Of a DNA stretch of 6,597 bases, positions 1-6,597 are shown piece after piece. A program made the translations under genes and the position numbers. Numbering within the stretch: position 1 is the first letter of the stretch; each line of letters starts with the position of its first letter. Origin of the DNA: a virus (taxonomy: Duplodnaviria > Heunggongvirae > Uroviricota > Caudoviricetes). The notes beneath the pieces are model-generated. The model was not told where the DNA came from. It saw only the letters and a list, made by a program, of their open reading frames with translations, and did not search any database. Location: the IMG/VR virus record IMGVR_UViG_3300029071_000005, positions 1-6,597 of that record. The stretch is one strand, 5' to 3'.

Positions 1-120
1 CGCCGCGCTCTGGAATTTTCGCCCCGCCGCGCTTATCAGGCTCTTACCAGCAAACGCCCCTTTGTTGGGGTGTCGCCAGTACGTGTTCACGCTGGGCGGA
101 AAAGGCAGGATCAGCTTCAT
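1..120 (-). CDS. rusA: RusA-like Holliday junction resolvase, N-terminal 40 codons only (gene runs off the window start)
   Basis: Minus-strand ATG at 120-118 overlaps the stop of the upstream gene (plus TCAT at 117-120 = ATGA on minus). Translation MKLILPFPPSVNTYWRHPNKGAFAGKSLISAAGRKFQSAA carries the LP-PPS-N-Y-RH N-terminal signature I recall for RusA-family resolvases. Partial, no stop within the window. Confidence 0.6.
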   Translation of the reverse strand, partial: MKLILPFPPSVNTYWRHPNKGAFAGKSLISAAGRKFQSAA

Positions 121-443
121 ACTTTCAGGTCCCTCTCATGTAACCAGTGGGTTGCACGCAGCCTTGCGTTTTCCTCACCGGCAAGCAGTGCGCGGATAAT
201 CCCGACTGCCTCGCTGTCGTCGTCCTTCACCGCGGTATGAAGCGTTATCCCCCGGGCCACACCACGCTTTATCGTGATGACGCCTTTTTTCTCCAGTGCG
301 CGAAGATGCTCCACCGCTGCATTCACTGAACGGTATCCCAGCATGGTTGCCACCTCCTGATTGGTTGGCGGGAAACCACGTTCTTTCTGATAAGAAATCA
401 GCATATCCAGCACCTGCTGCTGGCATTGAGTTAACGTCGTCAT
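117..443 (-). CDS. LexA-like DNA-binding domain protein lacking the S24 peptidase/dimerisation domain (108 aa)
   Basis: Track ORF 117..443. Residues 1-69 align without gaps to the E. coli LexA N-terminal winged-helix domain as I recall it (about half identical), with the recognition-helix segment SVNAAVEHLRALEKKG versus LexA SPNAAEEHLKALARKG. A hinge-like VGIIRALLAGEEN resembles LexA VGRVAAGEPLL, then the protein ends after about 25 more residues. ATGA overlaps at both ends (440-443 and 117-120). Confidence 0.75.
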   Translation of the reverse strand: MTTLTQCQQQVLDMLISYQKERGFPPTNQEVATMLGYRSVNAAVEHLRALEKKGVITIKRGVARGITLHTAVKDDDSEAVGIIRALLAGEENARLRATHWLHERDLKV

Positions 444-1093
444 GCCGCCATCTCCCTGACCAGTTTTTCCGCCTGCTGGCGAACCTGCGCCAGAAACGCC
501 TCACCACATGCCTCAAGTTCATCGCGCCCGATGTAGCTGATTGCCGGTCCCTTCCAGGTCTTATCGAAAACAGCAATAGCACCAGCGAAGAAAGCGCCTG
601 TCGGCACCTGCTTCTCATCCTTCGGGATAAACCAAGCAGGCAGTTCAAAACCAATACGCCCGCGAATAAAAGCAATATGATCCGCATCTTCCGGCCACCA
701 CACTTCGCTGGTGGCAGCTTTGATCAGGAAAACATAGCGCCCACCCTTATCACGCATGGCACTGGCATGTTTCATGATGTAACGCATGCCGGTGATGTAT
801 TGCCCCTCATGCTGACTGGCGCGGCTGTATGGGGGATTACCAAAGGCAGCCCCTTTAAGCTCCGCAAGACGTTCTGACCAGTCATGCGCCAGCGCGTTGT
901 CTTCCGCCGTGTAATACGCAGCACATTTGGCGTTATCACCGTCAGTGAACAGATCCAGAACAAACGGGCCAAACAGGGTGTTAATTCCCCAGAAAATGTT
1001 GTCCGGCGTGCGCCACTGATCACCCACTTCCTTCAGTTCATGGGCTGGTTTGTTCCGCAGTTCCACCAGCTCCTGGCAATATTTATTACTCAT
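440..1093 (-). CDS. Phage Dam-type DNA N6-adenine methyltransferase (orphan, no partner nuclease in window)
   Basis: Track ORF 440..1126. Contains the catalytic NPPY motif (GAAFGNPPYSRA) and the WRTPDNIFW...FVLDLFTDGDN N-terminal region typical of phage Dam-family methyltransferases. Start chosen at ATG 1093-1091 (MSNKY...) because it overlaps the upstream stop TAA 1095-1093 (TAATG); the alternative start at 1126 would give 228 aa. Confidence 0.85.
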   Translation of the reverse strand: MSNKYCQELVELRNKPAHELKEVGDQWRTPDNIFWGINTLFGPFVLDLFTDGDNAKCAAYYTAEDNALAHDWSERLAELKGAAFGNPPYSRASQHEGQYITGMRYIMKHASAMRDKGGRYVFLIKAATSEVWWPEDADHIAFIRGRIGFELPAWFIPKDEKQVPTGAFFAGAIAVFDKTWKGPAISYIGRDELEACGEAFLAQVRQQAEKLVREMAA

Positions 1094-1581
1094 TAAGCCC
1101 CCACGTAATTCCCTGACAGATACCACTCATCACCCGATACAGCGCGCTTGCTGCTTTTCCGTAAACACTGCTCACGACGCGCCAGAAAATTGTTTCGTTC
1201 TGGCTGGGAGTGGCTTTCACGGAATGCCGCCATCCACACCGTTGCAGCACGACGGTATAAGCCCCTGGACTCCAGTTCTTCCGCCTGGCGGGTCAGGCAC
1301 AAAATCACCCGGGGATCGTTAGTGCCGACATAGAAATTGCGCACAGGTCTGGTTTCACGAACTGGTTGTGGTTCCGGCTCCTGCGCTCTCTCAGTCAGGC
1401 GCGGGAAATGTCTGCGTGTATCCCCTTCACAACGGTGAGCCACACGCCCACTCTGACGTAACTTGCTTGCTGACTGCAGAACGCGCTGCCGTGAGTAACC
1501 TGCAAAAGCATCCGCAATGTCTCCGGAAGTACACCCCGGATGGGCTTCAATGAATTTCTGAACTTCATTCAAAAGACTCAT
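1093..1581 (-). CDS. Hypothetical regulator with PerC-like C-terminal motif and a possible N-terminal winged-helix region
   Basis: Track ORF 1093..1587. Motifs AEELESRGLYRRAATVWMAAF and RREQCLRK resemble the conserved core of PerC/Pch-family activators as I recall them. Start placed at ATG 1581-1579, 2 nt after the upstream TGA and 5-6 nt after an AGGGGG Shine-Dalgarno; GTG at 1587 is the alternative. Confidence 0.6.
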   Translation of the reverse strand: MSLLNEVQKFIEAHPGCTSGDIADAFAGYSRQRVLQSASKLRQSGRVAHRCEGDTRRHFPRLTERAQEPEPQPVRETRPVRNFYVGTNDPRVILCLTRQAEELESRGLYRRAATVWMAAFRESHSQPERNNFLARREQCLRKSSKRAVSGDEWYLSGNYVGA

Positions 1582-1583
1582 GA

Positions 1584-2402
1584 TCACCCCCTGAATCCTG
1601 CCGGGATCTGGCTGTAGTCCACGTTGTCGTAACTGGCTTTGAAGTACGGGTCCTCGCGTCTGGCTGCAGATACCGCAGGAACTTCCCAGGATTCTTCGAA
1701 ATGACGATCCGGACCAAAGAACGTGACAGCCTGTTTCACAAATTGTGTGCCGCTGTTACCCATCGCAGATACCCAGCCCGCGTAGCGTTTCACACCTTCC
1801 AGCATGGTTTCGGGTTTTACCCCCTCATTCAAACGGGCTTTCCAGGCTTTGAAGGCTGCAGATTTTGAATTGCCACCAGCACGTTTGGGGTATGCCAGCC
1901 ATGCCTGCTCAAACTCCGGAGAGTATTCCGGTCGGTTTGAACGAACTCGCACAGACTCATCAGCAGATGCACCAACAGCTATTGGTTCATTGACTGGTTC
2001 TTTGACTGGTTCAAAAGAGTGACTGGTTCTGGGTGAATCTCCTGCACCACCCCCTGGTGCAACTCCTGCACTACCTGGTGAATTTGCTGCACCAGATAGT
2101 GAATTATTTGCACTACCCCCTAGTGAATCTCCTGCACCATCAAGATGAAGGAGATAGATATTACTTGAGTTACCTTTTTCACCTTTCCGGGTGACTTTTT
2201 TTACCAGCCCGGAATCACAAAGGGCCGCAATATGATTCATCACAGAACGTTTGCTAATCTCGCACTGGTCAGCAATATGCTGGTAGCTGGGCCAGCACTC
2301 ACCCTGATCGCTGGCATTATCAGCCAGCTTGATCAGAACCAGTTTTCGCAATGGATTACCCACTCGAATTTTCATCGCTTTAACCATCAGCTCCATACTC
2401 AT
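1584..2402 (-). CDS. Phage replication initiator: N-terminal HTH domain, repetitive Gly/Ser/Ala/Pro linker, C-terminal replisome-organiser-like domain
   Basis: Track ORF 1584..2402. N-terminus KIRVGNPLRKLVLIKLADNASDQGECWPSYQHIADQCEISKRSVMNHIAALCDSGLV looks like the HTH module of phage replication initiators. C-terminal PEFEQAWLAYPKRAGGNSKSAAFKAWKARL matches the F-x-x-W-x-x-YPK...A...W motif I associate with phage replisome-organiser/DnaD-like domains. Start ATG 2402-2400 overlaps the upstream stop (ATGA). Confidence 0.8.
   Translation of the reverse strand: MSMELMVKAMKIRVGNPLRKLVLIKLADNASDQGECWPSYQHIADQCEISKRSVMNHIAALCDSGLVKKVTRKGEKGNSSNIYLLHLDGAGDSLGGSANNSLSGAANSPGSAGVAPGGGAGDSPRTSHSFEPVKEPVNEPIAVGASADESVRVRSNRPEYSPEFEQAWLAYPKRAGGNSKSAAFKAWKARLNEGVKPETMLEGVKRYAGWVSAMGNSGTQFVKQAVTFFGPDRHFEESWEVPAVSAARREDPYFKASYDNVDYSQIPAGFRG
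1991..2029. repeat. Three direct copies of TGACTGGTTC inside the replication-initiator gene
   Basis: TGACTGGTTC at 1991-2000, 2003-2012 and 2020-2029, with a degenerate TGGTTC at 1983-1988. Encodes a PVKEPVNEP stretch of the initiator. Confidence 0.6.
2032..2139. repeat. Five 18-bp iteron-like direct repeats (candidate origin of replication embedded in the initiator gene)
   Basis: GGTGAATCTCCTGCACCA 2032-2049, GGTGCAACTCCTGCACTA 2056-2073, GGTGAATTTGCTGCACCA 2077-2094, AGTGAATTATTTGCACTA 2099-2116, AGTGAATCTCCTGCACCA 2122-2139, spaced 21-24 bp apart. An AT-rich stretch follows at about 2140-2200. Same arrangement as lambda ori inside the O gene. Confidence 0.65.
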
Positions 2403-2623
2403 GCTGCACCTCCGAGATGCTTCATGTTTTTTCTGGAGCGAAAGGCTATAAGCGGCATACTGACGCGGTAATTACGGCCCAGCGGTTCACAAACCACCTT
2501 CTGACATTCACGGTCAACCAGGCTAACACGTAGAACATGCCCTGCAGGCGTGGTGTACCACTGACCCGGACGAGGACAACGGAAAGTCTGATTGGTAAAA
2601 CGTTTGAAAATATTCCGGATCAT
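2399..2623 (-). CDS. Hypothetical small protein (74 aa), possibly Cys-containing zinc-ribbon-like
   Basis: Track ORF 2399..2623. ATGA overlaps at both ends (2620-2623 and 2399-2402) link it to Rha and the replication gene. Contains the paired cysteines FRCPRPG...DRECQKVVCE. No family recognised. Confidence 0.5.
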   Translation of the reverse strand: MIRNIFKRFTNQTFRCPRPGQWYTTPAGHVLRVSLVDRECQKVVCEPLGRNYRVSMPLIAFRSRKNMKHLGGAA

Positions 2624-3165
2624 TTGCGCCCCCTTACCTCTGAAGGGTTCAGCGACAAATTTATGAGGCAGGCCAGCGCCGAAGCATCATTAATATAGTC
2701 ATATAAGCTAACAGCCAGCGGAGATTCGGCTTTTGCCAACATAGGATAAAGCTGCTGCAGCCAGACCTGATGAATTGATGAAATGTAGGAACAGAGAACG
2801 CTGGCGTTATGTGCAACGTCGCTCGGTACAGCGGGCCTTGAAAGCTGTTTCTCCATCTGGTTAAAGGCATTGATGTATGCCTCTTTGAACTGGGCAGCAC
2901 GTTTACCCGTGAAACCCATAGCAAGAAACGCAAAGCCGTCGCGGGTTATTTGATAGCAAGGTAGTTTGCGGCCTGTGCAATCGGTGTAATCACTCACCGA
3001 AAAATTGCGGGCAGTGAATGATGCGGAGCATTCAAGCGTGCGGATCTTTTTCAGTACATCGTCATGACGTTTGGAGAAGAAGTTGGCAACAGCCAGGGAT
3101 GAAGTAACAGCCTGACCATCAACGATGGCAATTTCAGGTTGAGTGAGGGTTGGGATCGTAGCCAT
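2620..3165 (-). CDS. Rha-family phage regulatory protein (181 aa as called)
   Basis: C-terminal 181 codons of track ORF 2620..3771. MATIPTLTQPEIAIVDGQAVTSSLAVANFFSKRHDDVLKKIRTLE...GRKLPCYQITRDGFAFLAMGFTGKRAAQFKEAYINAFNQME is a classic Rha N-terminal domain. Start chosen at ATG 3165-3163, preceded by AAAGAGG (GAGG 9 nt upstream). The frame stays open a further 202 codons upstream, so the true start is uncertain. Confidence 0.8.
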   Translation of the reverse strand: MATIPTLTQPEIAIVDGQAVTSSLAVANFFSKRHDDVLKKIRTLECSASFTARNFSVSDYTDCTGRKLPCYQITRDGFAFLAMGFTGKRAAQFKEAYINAFNQMEKQLSRPAVPSDVAHNASVLCSYISSIHQVWLQQLYPMLAKAESPLAVSLYDYINDASALACLINLSLNPSEVRGRK

Positions 3166-3333
3166 GATGGCAGCCTCTTTGGTGATTTTAAATAACTCAC
3201 CACCAAGGCTTTCCACGACCTTATTGGTGGTGAGACGTACAGGGGTGGAAATACCGGTCACCAAAGAACCCGGCCCAACCGAAGTTGGCCCTGCACGCCC
3301 CACCATAATTTGGGCGTAATGCTGCTCATGACA

Positions 3334-3357
3334 CAAAAAAACCGCAAGAGCGCGGTT
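3334..3357 (-). terminator. Candidate intrinsic terminator on the minus strand
   Basis: Minus-strand RNA AACCGC-GCUCUU-GCGGUU followed by UUUUUGUG (plus-strand A7 run at 3335-3341, arms 3340-3345 and 3352-3357). 6-bp stem, 6-nt loop, U-tract. Lies between the 59-aa ORF stop and the Rha start. Confidence 0.45.
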
Positions 3358-3442
3358 GTGCGCTTTGGTGAATTCCGGGTTTCCACGCCCGGCACCCGCT
3401 TTATAAGGTGCCTGAACAGTGTAACGTCCCGGAATGGCAGAA

Positions 3443-3622
3443 TCAATGTGCTGGTGGTCCTTCACACTCAACAAAATCACGCCTGAATTTCCACAAAGGA
3501 CTAAAGCACTCATGCGGGTAGTCTTTGCGAAGATAGATAACGCGCTGTGTTTCTGGCTCCCAACGAATAACATGAACATAAAGTCCTCTTCCGTCACGAA
3601 ACCAGCGGTTAAGTTCCTGCAC
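3443..3622 (-). CDS. Hypothetical 59-aa protein absent from the ORF track (GTG start, just under the 60-aa cutoff)
   Basis: Reading minus strand from GTG 3622-3620 to TGA 3445-3443 gives VQELNRWFRDGRGLYVHVIRWEPETQRVIYLRKDYPHECFSPLWKFRRDFVECEGPPAH, checked codon by codon. G-rich SD-like GGGGGG lies 6 nt upstream. It is out of frame with, and entirely inside, the N-terminal part of the 383-aa track ORF. No family recognised with confidence. Confidence 0.4.
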   Translation of the reverse strand: MQELNRWFRDGRGLYVHVIRWEPETQRVIYLRKDYPHECFSPLWKFRRDFVECEGPPAH

Positions 3623-3652
3623 AACTCGCCCCCCACAGTCAGGTAAAGTTCT

Positions 3653-3668
3653 CTGTGGTTACTTACAG
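3653..3668. promoter_or_regulatory. LexA (SOS) box core match CTGT-N8-ACAG
   Basis: CTGTGGTTACTTACAG at 3653-3668. It is the only exact CTGT-N8-ACAG I found in the window. Lies 31 bp upstream (minus strand) of the 59-aa ORF start, in the gap after the CII-like gene. The spacer is less AT-rich than strong chromosomal SOS boxes. Confidence 0.4.
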
Positions 3669-3767
3669 CCAGGTGATTTGGTAATCTGCATTCATGCCGT
3701 AACAACAGGTGTTCAGCCACGCGGACCACCAACTGTTGCGACCAACGGTTATTTGCCGTTAAACTGT

Positions 3768-4385
3768 TCATGCGTTAGTTTCTCCACAACCAGAAGCAAT
3801 CGACGCCACGACGCCCGGAGCTGCACACTCGCGGGCGTTACTCTTTTCCGGTGCACAAAAAACACGAAATAACAGTGTTAAATGCTCCTGCCACTTCGCC
3901 ATTACTTGGTAGCTGTTCTCTTCGATTTGCTCACGCTCAGCCTGGTCAATAACTCCATCAGCAGTTGCCTTGCGTAAGTACTGGGAATGCTTGCCAATCC
4001 ATTCTATTGACTCCATCAGCCGCTGATTAATGTCACCATTGCCAATGTCATCAATGACCACCAGCGGCACAAACACCCCATTACTACGACGGGCTATTGC
4101 ATCTGTTACATGCCTGGTACCACTGGCATCCTGTAAAACCATGGCCCACTCAAGTGGAAAAATTTGATCCCCACCGCTACGCAGTCTGTTATGCAATTGA
4201 TCTTTTGCTGGGGTGATATCATCAGATTTATACAAACCAAGAATTTCTGCTGCTTCCTCATAGCCATGAGGTAAATCAGCAATCGTTCTTCGTATTGCTG
4301 CCACCAGCCATGCTGGTTGTTTATCAACTTTCCATTCAGGTTCTTTACCCACGGCTATCTCCTTAAAACTGTGGTTACTTTCCAT
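3768..4385 (-). CDS. CII-like / YdaT-like early regulatory protein (205 aa)
   Basis: Track ORF 3768..4385. Second gene after cro-like, the position of cII. AAEILGLYKSDDITPAKDQLHNRLRSGGDQIFPLEWAMVL loosely parallels lambda CII AEAVGVDKSQISRWKRDWIPKFSMLLAVLEWGVV as I recall it. Start ATG 4385 overlaps the last 11 nt of the cro-like gene. Confidence 0.55.
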   Translation of the reverse strand: MESNHSFKEIAVGKEPEWKVDKQPAWLVAAIRRTIADLPHGYEEAAEILGLYKSDDITPAKDQLHNRLRSGGDQIFPLEWAMVLQDASGTRHVTDAIARRSNGVFVPLVVIDDIGNGDINQRLMESIEWIGKHSQYLRKATADGVIDQAEREQIEENSYQVMAKWQEHLTLLFRVFCAPEKSNARECAAPGVVASIASGCGETNA

Positions 4386-4623
4386 CTGATAAGTCTTTAA
4401 TCTTTTGAAAAATATCTGGACGTAATTTTTCTTTTGATACGCCAGTGGTCATTTCAATAAATATCGAGAGCTTTGCAGGGGGACGCTTTTCTCTGTTCAA
4501 CCAGTTCCAGACATGTTGTTGCTTTACTAAACGACCACTGCTGGCTGTGAGCTTCCGAGCCAATTCTGATTGACCACCAGCCAGAGCGATTGCCTCTGAT
4601 AAGGCTAATTGCTCAGGTGTCAT
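4375..4623 (-). CDS. Cro-like / YdaS-like HTH transcriptional regulator (82 aa)
   Basis: Track ORF 4375..4623. HTH segment GGQSELARKLTASSGRLVKQQHVWNWL. Transcribed divergently from the repressor; GGAG lies 6 nt upstream of the ATG; a TATAAT -10 lies upstream on the minus strand. Confidence 0.8.
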   Translation of the reverse strand: MTPEQLALSEAIALAGGQSELARKLTASSGRLVKQQHVWNWLNREKRPPAKLSIFIEMTTGVSKEKLRPDIFQKIKDLSDGK

Positions 4624-4647
4624 AGCTTTCTCCTATCTGTAAGTAGT

Positions 4648-4731
4648 AAAGTTGTTGATAACTTCGATTATACAACCACAACAACTTTTATCACAACTTT
4701 TAGATGTTGGAAAGCTAAAACATAAAGTTGT
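4648..4731. promoter_or_regulatory. OR-like operator region: four copies of the 8-9 bp motif AAAGTTGT/ACAACTTT, including an imperfect 16-bp palindrome
   Basis: AAAGTTGT at 4648-4655 and 4724-4731; ACAACTTTT at 4681-4689 and 4693-4701; palindrome AAGTTgttgatAACTT at 4649-4664. Sits between the divergent repressor and cro-like genes. Confidence 0.65.
4667..4696 (-). promoter_or_regulatory. Candidate pR-like sigma70 promoter for the cro-like operon
   Basis: On the minus strand: -35 TTGTGA (plus 4691-4696), 18-bp spacer, -10 TATAAT (plus 4667-4672), about 40 nt upstream of the cro-like ATG. Overlaps the operator repeats. Confidence 0.55.
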
Positions 4732-4760
4732 AACCTCAATAAAAACGAGGGGGATATGTT

Positions 4761-5447
4761 GTGAAAACATTGGCAGAAAGACTAAAAAGCGAAAGAGAAA
4801 AAGCAGGAATGAGTCAGGCGCAACTAGCTGAAAAAATTGGGCTTTCACAACAATCCGTAGCGAAAATCGAGAATGGAGAAACTCAACAGCCTCGGAAAAT
4901 TAAAGAGATTGCTAAAGTGTTAGGGGTTTCTCAAAAGTGGTTGCAATTGGGCATTGAGGATAACGCGTCTTTCCCAGACCTTGTTGTAAAGGAGGCTGAA
5001 AGTACAGCATTAGATCCTGACATTTTTGCAAACATTCCAGTCCTAGATGTCGAGTTATCAGCGGGTAATGGATGTTTGGCTGAAATAGTTGAATCAACTG
5101 TAGACTGGTTCCCGCTAAGAAGGATTGATTTAAGAAAAGCTGGTGTATGTGTCTCCAATGCAAAGATCGTAAAAATTTGGGGCAATAGTTTACTACCTGT
5201 ACTTAACAATGGAGATTTTGTTGCTGTTGATGTTTCCCAAACGGTTCCTATTCGTGATGGGGATCTTTATGCCATACGTGATGGCGTATTACTTAGAGTT
5301 AAAATATTGATCAATTTACCTGACGGTGGTCTGATTCTAAGAAGTTTCAATAAAGATGAGTATCCAGATGAAATACTCACCTTCGAAGATAGGCGTTCCA
5401 GAATTCACGTTATAGGTAGAGTATTCTGGTCATCGCGCACTTGGTAA
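4761..5447 (+). CDS. CI-like prophage repressor: N-terminal XRE-type HTH plus C-terminal S24 (LexA-like) autopeptidase domain
   Basis: Track ORF 4761..5447, GTG start 10 nt after GAGGGGG. HTH is MSQAQLAEKIGLSQQSVAKIENG. S24 signatures: candidate Ala-Gly cleavage site in LSAGNG, Ser motif WGNSLLPVLNNGDFVAVD (compare LexA GMSM...GDLLAV), Lys motif LLRVKIL (compare LexA VTVKRLK). Confidence 0.85.
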   Translation: MKTLAERLKSEREKAGMSQAQLAEKIGLSQQSVAKIENGETQQPRKIKEIAKVLGVSQKWLQLGIEDNASFPDLVVKEAESTALDPDIFANIPVLDVELSAGNGCLAEIVESTVDWFPLRRIDLRKAGVCVSNAKIVKIWGNSLLPVLNNGDFVAVDVSQTVPIRDGDLYAIRDGVLLRVKILINLPDGGLILRSFNKDEYPDEILTFEDRRSRIHVIGRVFWSSRTW

Positions 5448-5474
5448 TGCATCAAAAAACCTTCCTTCAGAAAT

Positions 5475-5579
5475 TTAGTTACCATTATTACCCGCCTTTT
5501 CAATCTTCCTCCCGTGATTTGAGAGTTTCCAATCACGGAAGGAAAGTGTCCCTTGTGTAATTAAAAGCGCATCGTCCAT
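5475..5579 (-). CDS. Candidate 34-aa small ORF antisense downstream of the repressor
   Basis: ATG 5579-5577 preceded by a perfect AGGAGG (plus CCTCCT 5585-5590) at 5-nt spacing. Translation MDDALLITQGTLSFRDWKLSNHGRKIEKAGNNGN, stop TAA 5477-5475. It is the C-terminal part of track ORF 5475..5663, whose upstream start would lie inside the operator-like block. Confidence 0.3.
   Translation of the reverse strand: MDDALLITQGTLSFRDWKLSNHGRKIEKAGNNGN
5504..5546 (+). other. Stable hairpin about 57 nt after the repressor stop (possible repressor 3' end structure; no U-tract)
   Basis: Inverted repeat TCTTCCTCCCGTGATT (5504-5519) and AATCACGGAAGGAAAG (5531-5546), about 13 bp with one mismatch and an 11-nt loop. 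Not followed by a T-run on the plus strand, so not a classic intrinsic terminator. Confidence 0.3.
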
Positions 5580-5640
5580 ACAACCTCCTTTTTTGATAAC
5601 CCTTGCCCTCATTTCACATCCGTCAAAACCACATAAAGTT

Positions 5641-5690
5641 GTTGACAACAACCAAAACAACAACTAGATTACAACTTAAAGATGTTGCAG
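5641..5690. promoter_or_regulatory. OL-like operator block homologous to the OR-like region
   Basis: CATAAAGTTGT at 5641-5651 is identical to 4721-4731. TAAAGTTGTTGAcAAC resembles 4647-4663 (TAAAGTTGTTGAtAAC). ACAACT-type half-sites recur at 5667-5672 and 5680-5685. About 55-60 bp of shared sequence with indels relative to 4645-4710. Confidence 0.6.
5651..5679 (+). promoter_or_regulatory. Candidate pL-like sigma70 promoter, plus strand
   Basis: -35 TTGACA (5651-5656, perfect), 17-bp spacer, -10 TAGATT (5674-5679), embedded in the operator-like repeats. Would transcribe towards boxA and the ORF at 5830. Confidence 0.55.
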
Positions 5691-5761
5691 TAACGAACAG
5701 GTAGGACGCCCACGAAGTAGCCGCCCGGGGCATATGAAGTCCAGGATGATTCGTTAGCAAC

Positions 5762-5784
5762 AAAAAAGCGCCCTACAGGACGCT
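5762..5784 (-). terminator. Candidate intrinsic terminator on the minus strand
   Basis: Minus-strand RNA AGCGUCC-UGUA-GGGCGCU (7-bp stem with one G-U pair, tetraloop) followed by UUUUUU (plus-strand A6 at 5762-5767). The same sequence folds less well on the plus strand (C-A mismatch). Confidence 0.45.
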
Positions 5785-5786
5785 TA

Positions 5787-5798
5787 GCTCTTTAACAA
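5787..5798 (+). promoter_or_regulatory. boxA-like antitermination element
   Basis: GCTCTTTAACAA at 5787-5798 matches the rrn/lambdoid boxA consensus (TGCTCTTTAACAA) at 12 of 13 positions. About 100 nt downstream of the candidate pL-like start and 32 nt upstream of the ATG at 5830. No clean boxB-type hairpin seen 3' of it. Confidence 0.5.
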
Positions 5799-5829
5799 TC
5801 TTGGTATCCCCGTAACAAAAGAGGGTTCT

Positions 5830-6123
5830 ATGGTCATATTCTGTGCTTACGTTCATCCTAATGGATTTTTTATCAGTACCAACCAACAAGACGAATTCTG
5901 GATTCTACTTAGTAAGCAGGTCGGATGGGGACGATTCTGTCTAATCCGACCAGAATCAGAATTTACAGAGAATGGAGGGCTTTTTGAATTACGTGAAATA
6001 CGTCCGGCAGATGGTCAAGCCCCTGACCAAGTAATCGAATCGTCAGCTGTTTTATGGCGTCGGCAGGAAGCGTTCGAAGCTGAGAGAGTAATTTCTTCTT
6101 ATCTTCAGTCGTGGCAGAAGTAG
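5830..6123 (+). CDS. Hypothetical protein (97 aa) in the position of a first pL-operon gene; function unknown
   Basis: Track ORF 5830..6123. Good RBS (AGAGGG, 4 nt before the ATG). Downstream of the plus-strand promoter and boxA. No arginine-rich N-terminus like lambda N. Its 3' 160 bp overlaps the convergent minus-strand ORF 5963..6466, so one of the two calls may be wrong. Confidence 0.35.
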   Translation: MVIFCAYVHPNGFFISTNQQDEFWILLSKQVGWGRFCLIRPESEFTENGGLFELREIRPADGQAPDQVIESSAVLWRRQEAFEAERVISSYLQSWQK

Positions 6124-6466
6124 AACTATTGATGATACGTTCAAGTTCACAGAGAGTCTCATCATGCAATCTTATTGTCATAATCCCAAGAATAGCTTTA
6201 AGACCTCCATCATCACGAATGAAATCAATTCCATCTTTAGTAATTCTTAATTCAGGAATATTTATATTTATGCCATCCAAGTAATAATCAAGAGCATTCT
6301 TAATCAAGCCATGTTCTTCGAGATAAATTAAGTTCGAAATTAGGACATTATCATCTCCAAATGCGTCACGAACAGACTGCAACGCATCATCAGAAATTTC
6401 ATAAGGATGAGCATCATACAGTATTTGTAACAACTGCCTTTGTGCACTTCTATCAAATTTGTCCAT
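5963..6466 (-). CDS. Hypothetical protein (167 aa) encoded mostly in a visibly AT-rich segment
   Basis: Track ORF 5963..6466. 114 stop-free codons in AT-rich DNA (about 6124-6466) are unlikely by chance. Sequence is protein-like, with a possible winged-helix segment (LISNLIYLEEHGLIK). GGTGA lies 9 nt upstream of the ATG. No family recognised. Confidence 0.6.
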   Translation of the reverse strand: MDKFDRSAQRQLLQILYDAHPYEISDDALQSVRDAFGDDNVLISNLIYLEEHGLIKNALDYYLDGININIPELRITKDGIDFIRDDGGLKAILGIMTIRLHDETLCELERIINSSTSATTEDKKKLLSQLRTLPADAIKQLTIRLLGQGLDHLPDVFHVIQKALHSL

Positions 6467-6597
6467 CTTAAATAATCACCATGTTATTGGGGGTATCAAG
6501 ATTAACCGAATCCTTGTTGTTGGGGAATAACCAGGTCCACCTCGCCTGATGTGGCTAAAAGCAGGCACATAACAGCTAAGTATTTTCAACCAGAGAG

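Follow-up and report, generated by a model that had tools for sequence, protein, structure and literature searches.

Convergent phage genes sharing their last 161 nucleotides: a conserved pair in prophage cargo sites and a proposed antisense switch

In the sieB-esc-sas region of phages P22 and lambda, an accessory gene lies antisense to the early-left operon, and in type I toxin-antitoxin (TA) systems convergent transcripts overlap at their 3' ends. These and related arrangements are compared here with a locus in a stretch of 6,597 nucleotides (nt) from a virus of the Caudoviricetes (IMG/VR record IMGVR_UViG_3300029071_000005, positions 1 to 6,597), which is called the window at its full length. 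Two open reading frames (ORFs) converge in this locus, one of 167 codons on the minus strand, designated gene A, and one of 97 codons on the plus strand, designated gene B.

Among described systems, P22 sieB/esc/sas and BstA/aba provide the best analogies for A/B, but neither is homologous to A or B. With sieB-esc-sas (PMC12197685) the pair would have in common a prophage-expressed accessory gene by the immunity region, antisense to the early-left operon, and an escape of the phage itself that is tied to an antisense transcript over the same DNA. However, SieB resides in the membrane and Esc is translated in frame from the same strand, whereas B is a separate protein encoded on the opposite strand. 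The A/B module is also not tied to the PL region, and A showed no homology to SieB, its only match being phrog_3983 and no named Pfam or PHROG family being hit. In BstA/aba (PMC8585504), as would be the case in A/B, a single prophage protein is combined with an antidote embedded in its own locus, by which lytic growth is preserved. There, the antidote aba is a DNA element instead of a gene for a protein, the sequence of BstA is unrelated, and defence activity of A is only proposed. The candidates for antisense overlaps in enterohaemorrhagic Escherichia coli, asa and others (PMC6294744, PMC9927249), are similar to B as long antisense ORFs missed by annotation pipelines. For these candidates mainly expression evidence is available, whereas the evidence for A/B is evolutionary only, but extends over several orders of Proteobacteria; in addition, the overlap is confined to the 3' thirds of A and B, which leaves each gene a domain of its own outside it. 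Type I TA systems resemble A/B in having convergent units with 3' ends complementary over about 100-200 nt, but A and B encode conserved soluble proteins of 167 and about 100 amino acids (aa) and no small hydrophobic toxin.

The genes and their parts are as follows, in window coordinates or residue numbers:

5963..6466, minus strand: gene A, 167 aa, WP_000357060.1, 'hypothetical protein'
A residues 1-85, 86-96 and 97-167: predicted acidic winged-helix domain, conserved DDGGL linker and four-helix C-terminal region, respectively
5830..6123, plus strand: gene B, 97 aa, not annotated in RefSeq
B residues 1-44 and 45-97: part outside A and part antisense to A codons 115-167, respectively
5963..6123, both strands: dual-coding overlap of 161 nt, in which B codon position 1 pairs with A position 1, B position 2 with A position 3, and B position 3 with A position 2
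5821..5825, plus strand: Shine-Dalgarno (SD)-like GAGGG, 4 nt ahead of the B ATG

Both ORFs, each starting with ATG, are present as described by a first-pass annotation made from the letters of this DNA alone, and the overlap, put there at about 160 bp, measures 161 nt. It had been assumed in that annotation that one of the ORFs must be a shadow, and codon-position statistics were proposed to decide which of them codes in 5963-6123. Both frames code: each is under purifying selection, and they form a conserved pair. By their pattern of evolution, neither ORF is a shadow, and two real protein genes converge and share their last 161 nt.

The overlap was surveyed by retrieving 80 viral contigs encoding A relatives and scoring 89 related loci. 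A match to the hidden Markov model of B was detected antisense at the 3' end of A in 87 of these 89 loci, the loci concerned having been chosen for similarity to A (39-60% identity). Overlap length was 2 mod 3 in all 76 well-defined loci (152-218 nt), so that the relative frame is fixed; both frames are open across the homologues. The first eight divergent A loci, from Proteus, Serratia, Edwardsiella phage GF-2, a Pseudomonas phage, E. coli phage PhiR49_2, an Acinetobacter phage, Salmonella and Mangrovibacter, each harbor an antisense ORF of 95-156 aa, which covers the final 150-218 nt of A and extends 124-256 nt past its stop codon. The products of these ORFs align with B of the window, including the part outside A (M.I....HPNGFF....QDFW..LS..GWGRF). 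In the assemblies L121-L125, both genes had been called as overlapping convergent genes by independent gene callers.

Synonymous variation in A is reduced exactly under B. The fraction of same-residue pairs with different codons drops from 0.57 (codons 1-113) to 0.26 (codons 115-167), with the step at about codon 115-120, and is lowest (0.14) in codons 131-140, under the most conserved motif of B, VLWRxxEA. Correspondingly, the NG86 pS of A declines from 0.81 outside to 0.40 within the overlap. When the C-terminal protein sequence of A was kept and synonymous codons were redrawn from the usage of the family itself, 5.0 B-frame stops were obtained on average and the frame remained open in 0.3% of trials (0.7% for the window), whereas not a single stop is observed across the overlap in 52 unique loci. 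Dual coding is also visible in base composition. The content of G+C (GC) is 46.6% in the overlap and 33.8% in the part of A outside it (6124-6466), compared to 40.7% in the neighbouring immunity region (4301-5829) and 51.4% at 1-4300. The first-pass annotation had noted an AT-rich gene with a composition boundary at the stop of the plus-strand ORF, and the step is indeed located at the B stop codon. It is family-wide, since GC of the overlap exceeds that of the A-only part in 48 of 52 unique homologous loci, and it is attributed to the dual coding itself: stops of the B frame read TTA, CTA and TCA on the A strand, and these triplets are avoided across the overlap.

B is well supported by its sequence evolution as a real protein-coding gene that is almost entirely unannotated. 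In the 44 codons outside A, 57 unique sequences contain no stop in the B frame, compared to 105-230 in the other five frames. The pN/pS ratio of this part is 0.46, at a saturated pS of 0.76, and thus equals that of the part of A outside the overlap, while four other frames have values of at least 1.0, and mismatches per codon position (0.40/0.30/0.59) show the periodicity of coding sequence. Of 57 unique loci, 35 have an SD-like motif ahead of B, compared to 9% of random 15-mers. Nevertheless, relatives of B amount to only 86 clusters among 5.8 billion, RefSeq entries are only partial and located at contig ends, and no match was obtained in Pfam, PHROG, NCBIfam, the Protein Data Bank (PDB) or PADLOC. 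A structure prediction, built with database homologues of B, has a mean pLDDT of 73.9 and suggests five beta-strands (residues 3-58) and a C-terminal helix (78-96). N-type antiterminators of lambdoid phages carry an arginine-rich N-terminal RNA-binding motif. The plus-strand ORF had been named after the N position, but it is not an N analogue: B begins with MVIFCAYVHPNGFF, which lacks such a motif, and its homologues are not restricted to PL-nut contexts, being found behind Q and tR'-like terminators, after Rz between lysis and terminase genes, and elsewhere.

In three loci, L094 (Acinetobacter sp. C32I, 4001-4361) and L095/L096 (Gilliamella apicola), an intact, annotated B is accompanied by only 40-55 codons of A, exactly those under B. 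Apparently, B is called in these Acinetobacter and Gilliamella genomes because A decayed there, and survival of just the stretch of A under B points to selection on B.

A is, judged from its sequence conservation, a real protein-coding gene of a large unnamed phage family. It matches phrog_3983, of unknown function, from end to end (E 2.6e-59) and no model in Pfam, NCBIfam or the PADLOC system models, in agreement with the earlier remark that no family could be named for it; literature searches also yielded nothing on the family. By word search, 30 full-length homologues with identities down to 35% were detected, and a profile search (E up to 0.001) revealed 1138 clusters at 50% identity, nearly all of them 155-175 aa long. 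In tblastn searches the family was found in phages of Edwardsiella, Pseudomonas, Klebsiella, Escherichia, Acinetobacter and Halomonas, to which a scan of species-representative genomes added Xanthomonadales, Burkholderiales, Moraxella, Snodgrassella and one alphaproteobacterial metagenome-assembled genome. The C-terminal third, which lies under B, is well conserved (LRxLPADAIKHLTxxLLxxGLxxLPDAF), and pN/pS is 0.445 outside and 0.63 inside the overlap.

For A, a confident two-domain model was obtained, in which the winged-helix segment suspected before is predicted as the N-terminal domain. While its fold is that of MarR/PadR-type transcription factors in the model, neither a profile match (in Pfam, NCBIfam or PDB sequences) nor a basic DNA-contacting recognition helix and wing was found. 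In the window protein, the domain has an isoelectric point of 4.36 and a net charge of -9 (family mean -4), and the region of the H3 'recognition' helix contains on average 1.0 K+R versus 2.9 D+E across the family, the wing being mildly basic. As the domain is acidic and H3 more acidic than basic, A is not called a DNA-binding regulator, and the idea of a canonical DNA-binding repressor is weakened. Pfam DUF2513 (YjcQ) does not match the window protein, but 18 of 59 relatives match it (best E 5.4e-6), pointing to a distant relationship of the N-terminal domain of A only; MarR, PadR and YjcQ proteins have nothing comparable to its C-terminal domain or the DDGGL motif. PDB sequence searches with profiles of A and B gave nothing meaningful. 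The most conserved motif of A, comprising D86, G87, G88, L89, A91 and I92, is located in residues 86-96 (window about 6179-6211), the sole segment with an AlphaFold pLDDT below 50. High conservation combined with low model confidence may indicate a segment used in interaction or oligomerisation, and not just a linker.

Comparisons of the loci indicate that the A/B pair is conserved and moves as one unit among temperate phages, those of Enterobacterales, Pseudomonas, Acinetobacter and some Xanthomonadales and Burkholderiales. The sites it occupies are of the classic moron type: next to cI, in the interval from Q to the holin gene or from Rz to the terminase gene, and in an immI-like region. Beside cI it is present in the window, in Mangrovibacter L013, in Proteus L004 and in Acinetobacter AbIPP1 and L121. 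It lies between lysis genes and terminase in PhiR49_2, and adjoins the terminase in Serratia L005. In GF-2, it immediately follows an Arc/Mnt-like gene within an Arc/Ant immI-like region; in Salmonella L011 it is part of a P2-like Cox/integrase region, and it also occurs near Mu-F/portal genes. A follows cI in AbIPP1 and the Arc/Mnt-like gene in GF-2. In the Proteus locus (Proteus sp. G2658, L004, 1786-4577), A/B is directly beside a gene with a BstA_C domain and a cI-like repressor gene, so that two accessory loci are stacked in one hotspot.

The nearest large ORF on the 5' side of B is on the B strand in 49 of 55 unique loci, and that on the 5' side of A is on the B strand in 40 of 51. The module therefore usually resides in an operon read in the direction of B, with A antisense to it. 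In six of 15 scanned loci, the gene just upstream of B specifies a late antiterminator Q, belonging to three unrelated Pfam families, and in L018 a holin gene is found at the far side of the module from Q. In 24 of 57 loci, a hairpin with a tail of at least five T is located upstream of B, in most cases at a distance of about 20-25 nt from its start. An A-tract on the opposite side, present in many of these hairpins, may allow bidirectional termination. By its placement, the hairpin behind Q and ahead of B occupies the pR'-tR' position. In the clade L067-L085 (about 3640-5115), B starts no more than 15 nt from the end of a co-directional upstream gene of about 485 aa, or overlaps it, which suggests translational coupling; the upstream gene has no Pfam match.

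In the window, the following signals surround the pair:

5642..5670, plus strand: PL-like promoter TTGACA-17-TAGATT, 10 of 12 matches, by consensus only
5766..5785, minus strand: GC-rich hairpin AAGCGTCCTGTAGGGCGCTT followed by TTTTTTG; on the plus strand a weaker terminator, ahead of B
5787..5798, plus strand: boxA-like GCTCTTTAACAA, directly after the hairpin, a nut-like leader element of the phage backbone
6472..6499, minus strand: candidate A promoter TTGATA-16-GATTAT, weak (9 of 12 matches), its -10 ending 5 nt before the A ATG
6482..6525, minus strand: direct repeats CCCCAATAACA (6482-6492) and CCCCAACAACA (6515-6525), 33 nt apart, consensus CCCCAAYAACA, bracketing the A promoter region

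The hairpin at 5766..5785 is the probable terminator of the A mRNA. An equivalent hairpin was annotated as terminator by the SfV authors, and comparable ones with A-tract and T-tract occur upstream of B in many loci. As it is located beyond the B start, the 3' untranslated region of A would be antisense to all of B. The PL-like promoter is oriented such that it would direct transcription through the leader and B, and then antisense through A. GCTCTTTAACAA, which we take to be boxA-like from its consensus, has a counterpart, CGCTCTTTAA, at the same position in the Mangrovibacter locus L013. About 110 nt of leader are conserved after the PL-like promoter (window 5642-5800), with the hairpin preceding the boxA-like element, and these elements belong to the phage backbone, being common to SfV, SfIV and Mangrovibacter prophages whatever cargo follows. 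No Rfam match was detected in 5400-6597, and the fold of the PL leader is not unusually stable (z = -0.73). Ahead of A, no clear SD is present and the -10 is 5 nt from the ATG, so its mRNA may be leaderless. Repeat pairs of 10-14 nt, spaced by 33-34 nt at about -60/-27 from the A start, are also found in L011, L014, L076, L033 and L004. Their sequences differ between clades (CCCCAACAACA, ACCCCTACAG, CACCACAACATCA) while the geometry is the same, making them a weak lead to a candidate operator.

The best explanation of these observations as a whole, with a probability of roughly 60%, is that two real, interlocked genes form a reciprocal antisense switch, A acting as a factor of the lysogen and B as a lytic counter-factor. 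The switch itself is a reasonable inference from genomic context. A would be expressed in the lysogen from its own promoter, usually antisense to the lytic operon or behind a cI- or Mnt-like repressor gene, and its transcript would end at the hairpin beyond the B start and thereby cover all of B in antisense. B is usually on the operon strand, and often no other ORF separates it from a preceding terminator dependent on N- or Q-type antitermination; in the window, the putative order is PL-like promoter, hairpin and boxA-like element, B. Accordingly placed, B should be made only from antiterminated lytic transcripts once lysis is committed, and lytic transcription through B should then collide head-on with transcription of A. 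The shared DNA would act as a switch by reciprocal antisense and transcriptional interference, and would make the genes inseparable. More speculatively, A could be a factor beneficial to the prophage, in exclusion, defence or host modulation, acting through protein contacts of its acidic winged helix. Such a factor might hinder the lytic growth of its own phage, and B could be the lytic-phase counter-factor conferring self-immunity. The most far-reaching form of this proposal, a new prophage accessory system of effector and antidote genes interlocked on opposite strands, inseparable by recombination and expressed in a mutually exclusive manner (A in the lysogen, B under N-/Q-antiterminated lytic transcription), is tentative and rather doubtful.

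Several observations weigh against these proposals. A is present without B in Kluyvera L098/L015, in L082 and in several loci of Xanthomonadales and Burkholderiales. In the sample of species-representative genomes, a B match was obtained in only 12 of 23 A loci; a few of the A loci without a match contain a divergent B-like ORF in the same frame. B-only remnants exist as well (L094, L095/L096). The partnership is therefore not obligate: among the loci compared, those of the Enterobacterales, Pseudomonas and Acinetobacter branch carry the pair as a rule, though this does not extend to all loci. B does not always follow the operon either, since it is directed against the adjoining early operon in Acinetobacter loci. 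The promoter matches are at chance level for the region. Finally, PADLOC-DB 2.0 revealed no defence system, A matching only CARF_m5 at E 0.013 and B nothing.

Among other explanations, the most durable is that both genes are real but independent neighbours, overlapping by accident after loss of a stop codon extended B into A, with no coupling between them. The A-only and B-only loci would fit, but overlap, frame and extent (152-218 nt) persist among loci whose proteins are only 30-45% identical and in six or more different genomic contexts, the two genes travel together, and the most conserved motif of B is inside the overlap. We consider such an accident unlikely.

An addiction module of the TA kind, with one protein a toxin, the other its antidote, and the 3'-3' overlap providing type-I-like antisense control, is improbable. 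Two small, tightly linked and mobile genes in prophage accessory sites would suit it, the convergent 3' overlap recalls type I systems, and the predicted five strands and C-terminal helix of B are superficially similar to CcdB/MazF. On the other hand, loci with A alone and loci with B alone are maintained, the two proteins are acidic and soluble rather than small hydrophobic peptides, and a type II system should be a co-directional bicistron with a recognisable toxin fold, whereas the genes are convergent and no TA families were found in PADLOC or Pfam. A CcdB/MazF-like toxin in B also has no profile support, the hhalign probability being below 1% against CcdB and MazF sequences.

It is very improbable that the 167-aa minus-strand gene alone is real, with the plus-strand ORF a chance or shadow frame kept open by the amino-acid sequence of A. 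PGAP and all phage records annotate A alone, and the lack of database matches of B is in line with this, but it is refuted at the level of sequence evolution: the 44 N-terminal codons of B, outside A, show protein-level conservation from genus to genus as well as coding periodicity, and contain no stops, SD-like motifs precede the gene, and synonymous sites of A are suppressed exactly where the frame of B would rarely stay open by chance. The reverse, a real N-like early gene on the plus strand with the minus frame a shadow in 5963-6123 or throughout, could appeal to the SD of B and its lambda N position behind a PL-like promoter and boxA-like element, but can practically be dismissed, since conservation in the A family covers the entire protein and hence also the C-terminal third (LRxLPADAIKHL...LPDAF), A is under selection and has a confident model, and B has neither an arginine-rich motif nor a confinement to PL contexts.

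The window represents the immunity region of an E. coli prophage of the lambdoid type, similar to CPS-53/KpLE1, SfV and SfIV, and includes two regulatory genes to the left of the pair:

4761..5447, plus strand: cI-like repressor gene of the XRE/S24 type
4375..4623, minus strand: cro-like gene

In a full-length match (E. coli E189), the early-left genes yfdP-yfdQ-yfdR are located rightward of this region; within the window, the upstream context of A is limited to 131 bp, as stated in the first-pass annotation. The idea of a moron-like foreign gene, put forward in that annotation, is supported by comparison of the flanks. These (about 5691-5800 and 6480-6597) are common to many E. coli prophages and to phages SfV, SfIV, SfII, Kati and others, and SfV, SfIV, Kati and other phages contain different genes between them. 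While the flanks were found in 1883 E. coli records, the exact insert 5830-6466 is present in only 77 of 5426 complete E. coli genomes, always with at least 99% identity and invariably with one annotated gene, 'hypothetical protein'. The locus next to the repressor is a variable cargo hotspot, and A is a horizontally mobile cargo gene.

Further genes were noted in this prophage type. A minus-strand ORF of 35 codons (MDDALLITQGTLSFRDWKLSNHGRKIEKAGNNGN; window 5475-5594, ATG at 5582) with a strong AAGGAGG before its start lies between the cI stop and the PL-like promoter, convergent on cI; it has no Pfam match, and the E189 record lacks an annotation for it. In E. coli E189 (L001, 11979-13027), at the other end of the prophage, a gene for a Panacea-domain protein and a small upstream partner are situated beside a truncated tRNA-dihydrouridine synthase gene and, by annotation, may be a TA pair.

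In bacteria and phages, long antiparallel overlaps of protein genes are regarded as rare, and reports of them are often contested. The evolutionary evidence for A/B is unusually clean over many genera, making the pair a solid test case. It also exposes a systematic blind spot of annotation, as B is absent from RefSeq/PGAP, PHROGs and Pfam although the module is present in as many as 77 complete E. coli genomes and in viral contigs numbering in the hundreds. If the switch or self-immunity is real, the module would be a compact and portable regulatory design, and if effector and antidote are indeed interlocked, temperate phages would carry in it a host-protecting or host-modulating prophage activity with built-in self-immunity.
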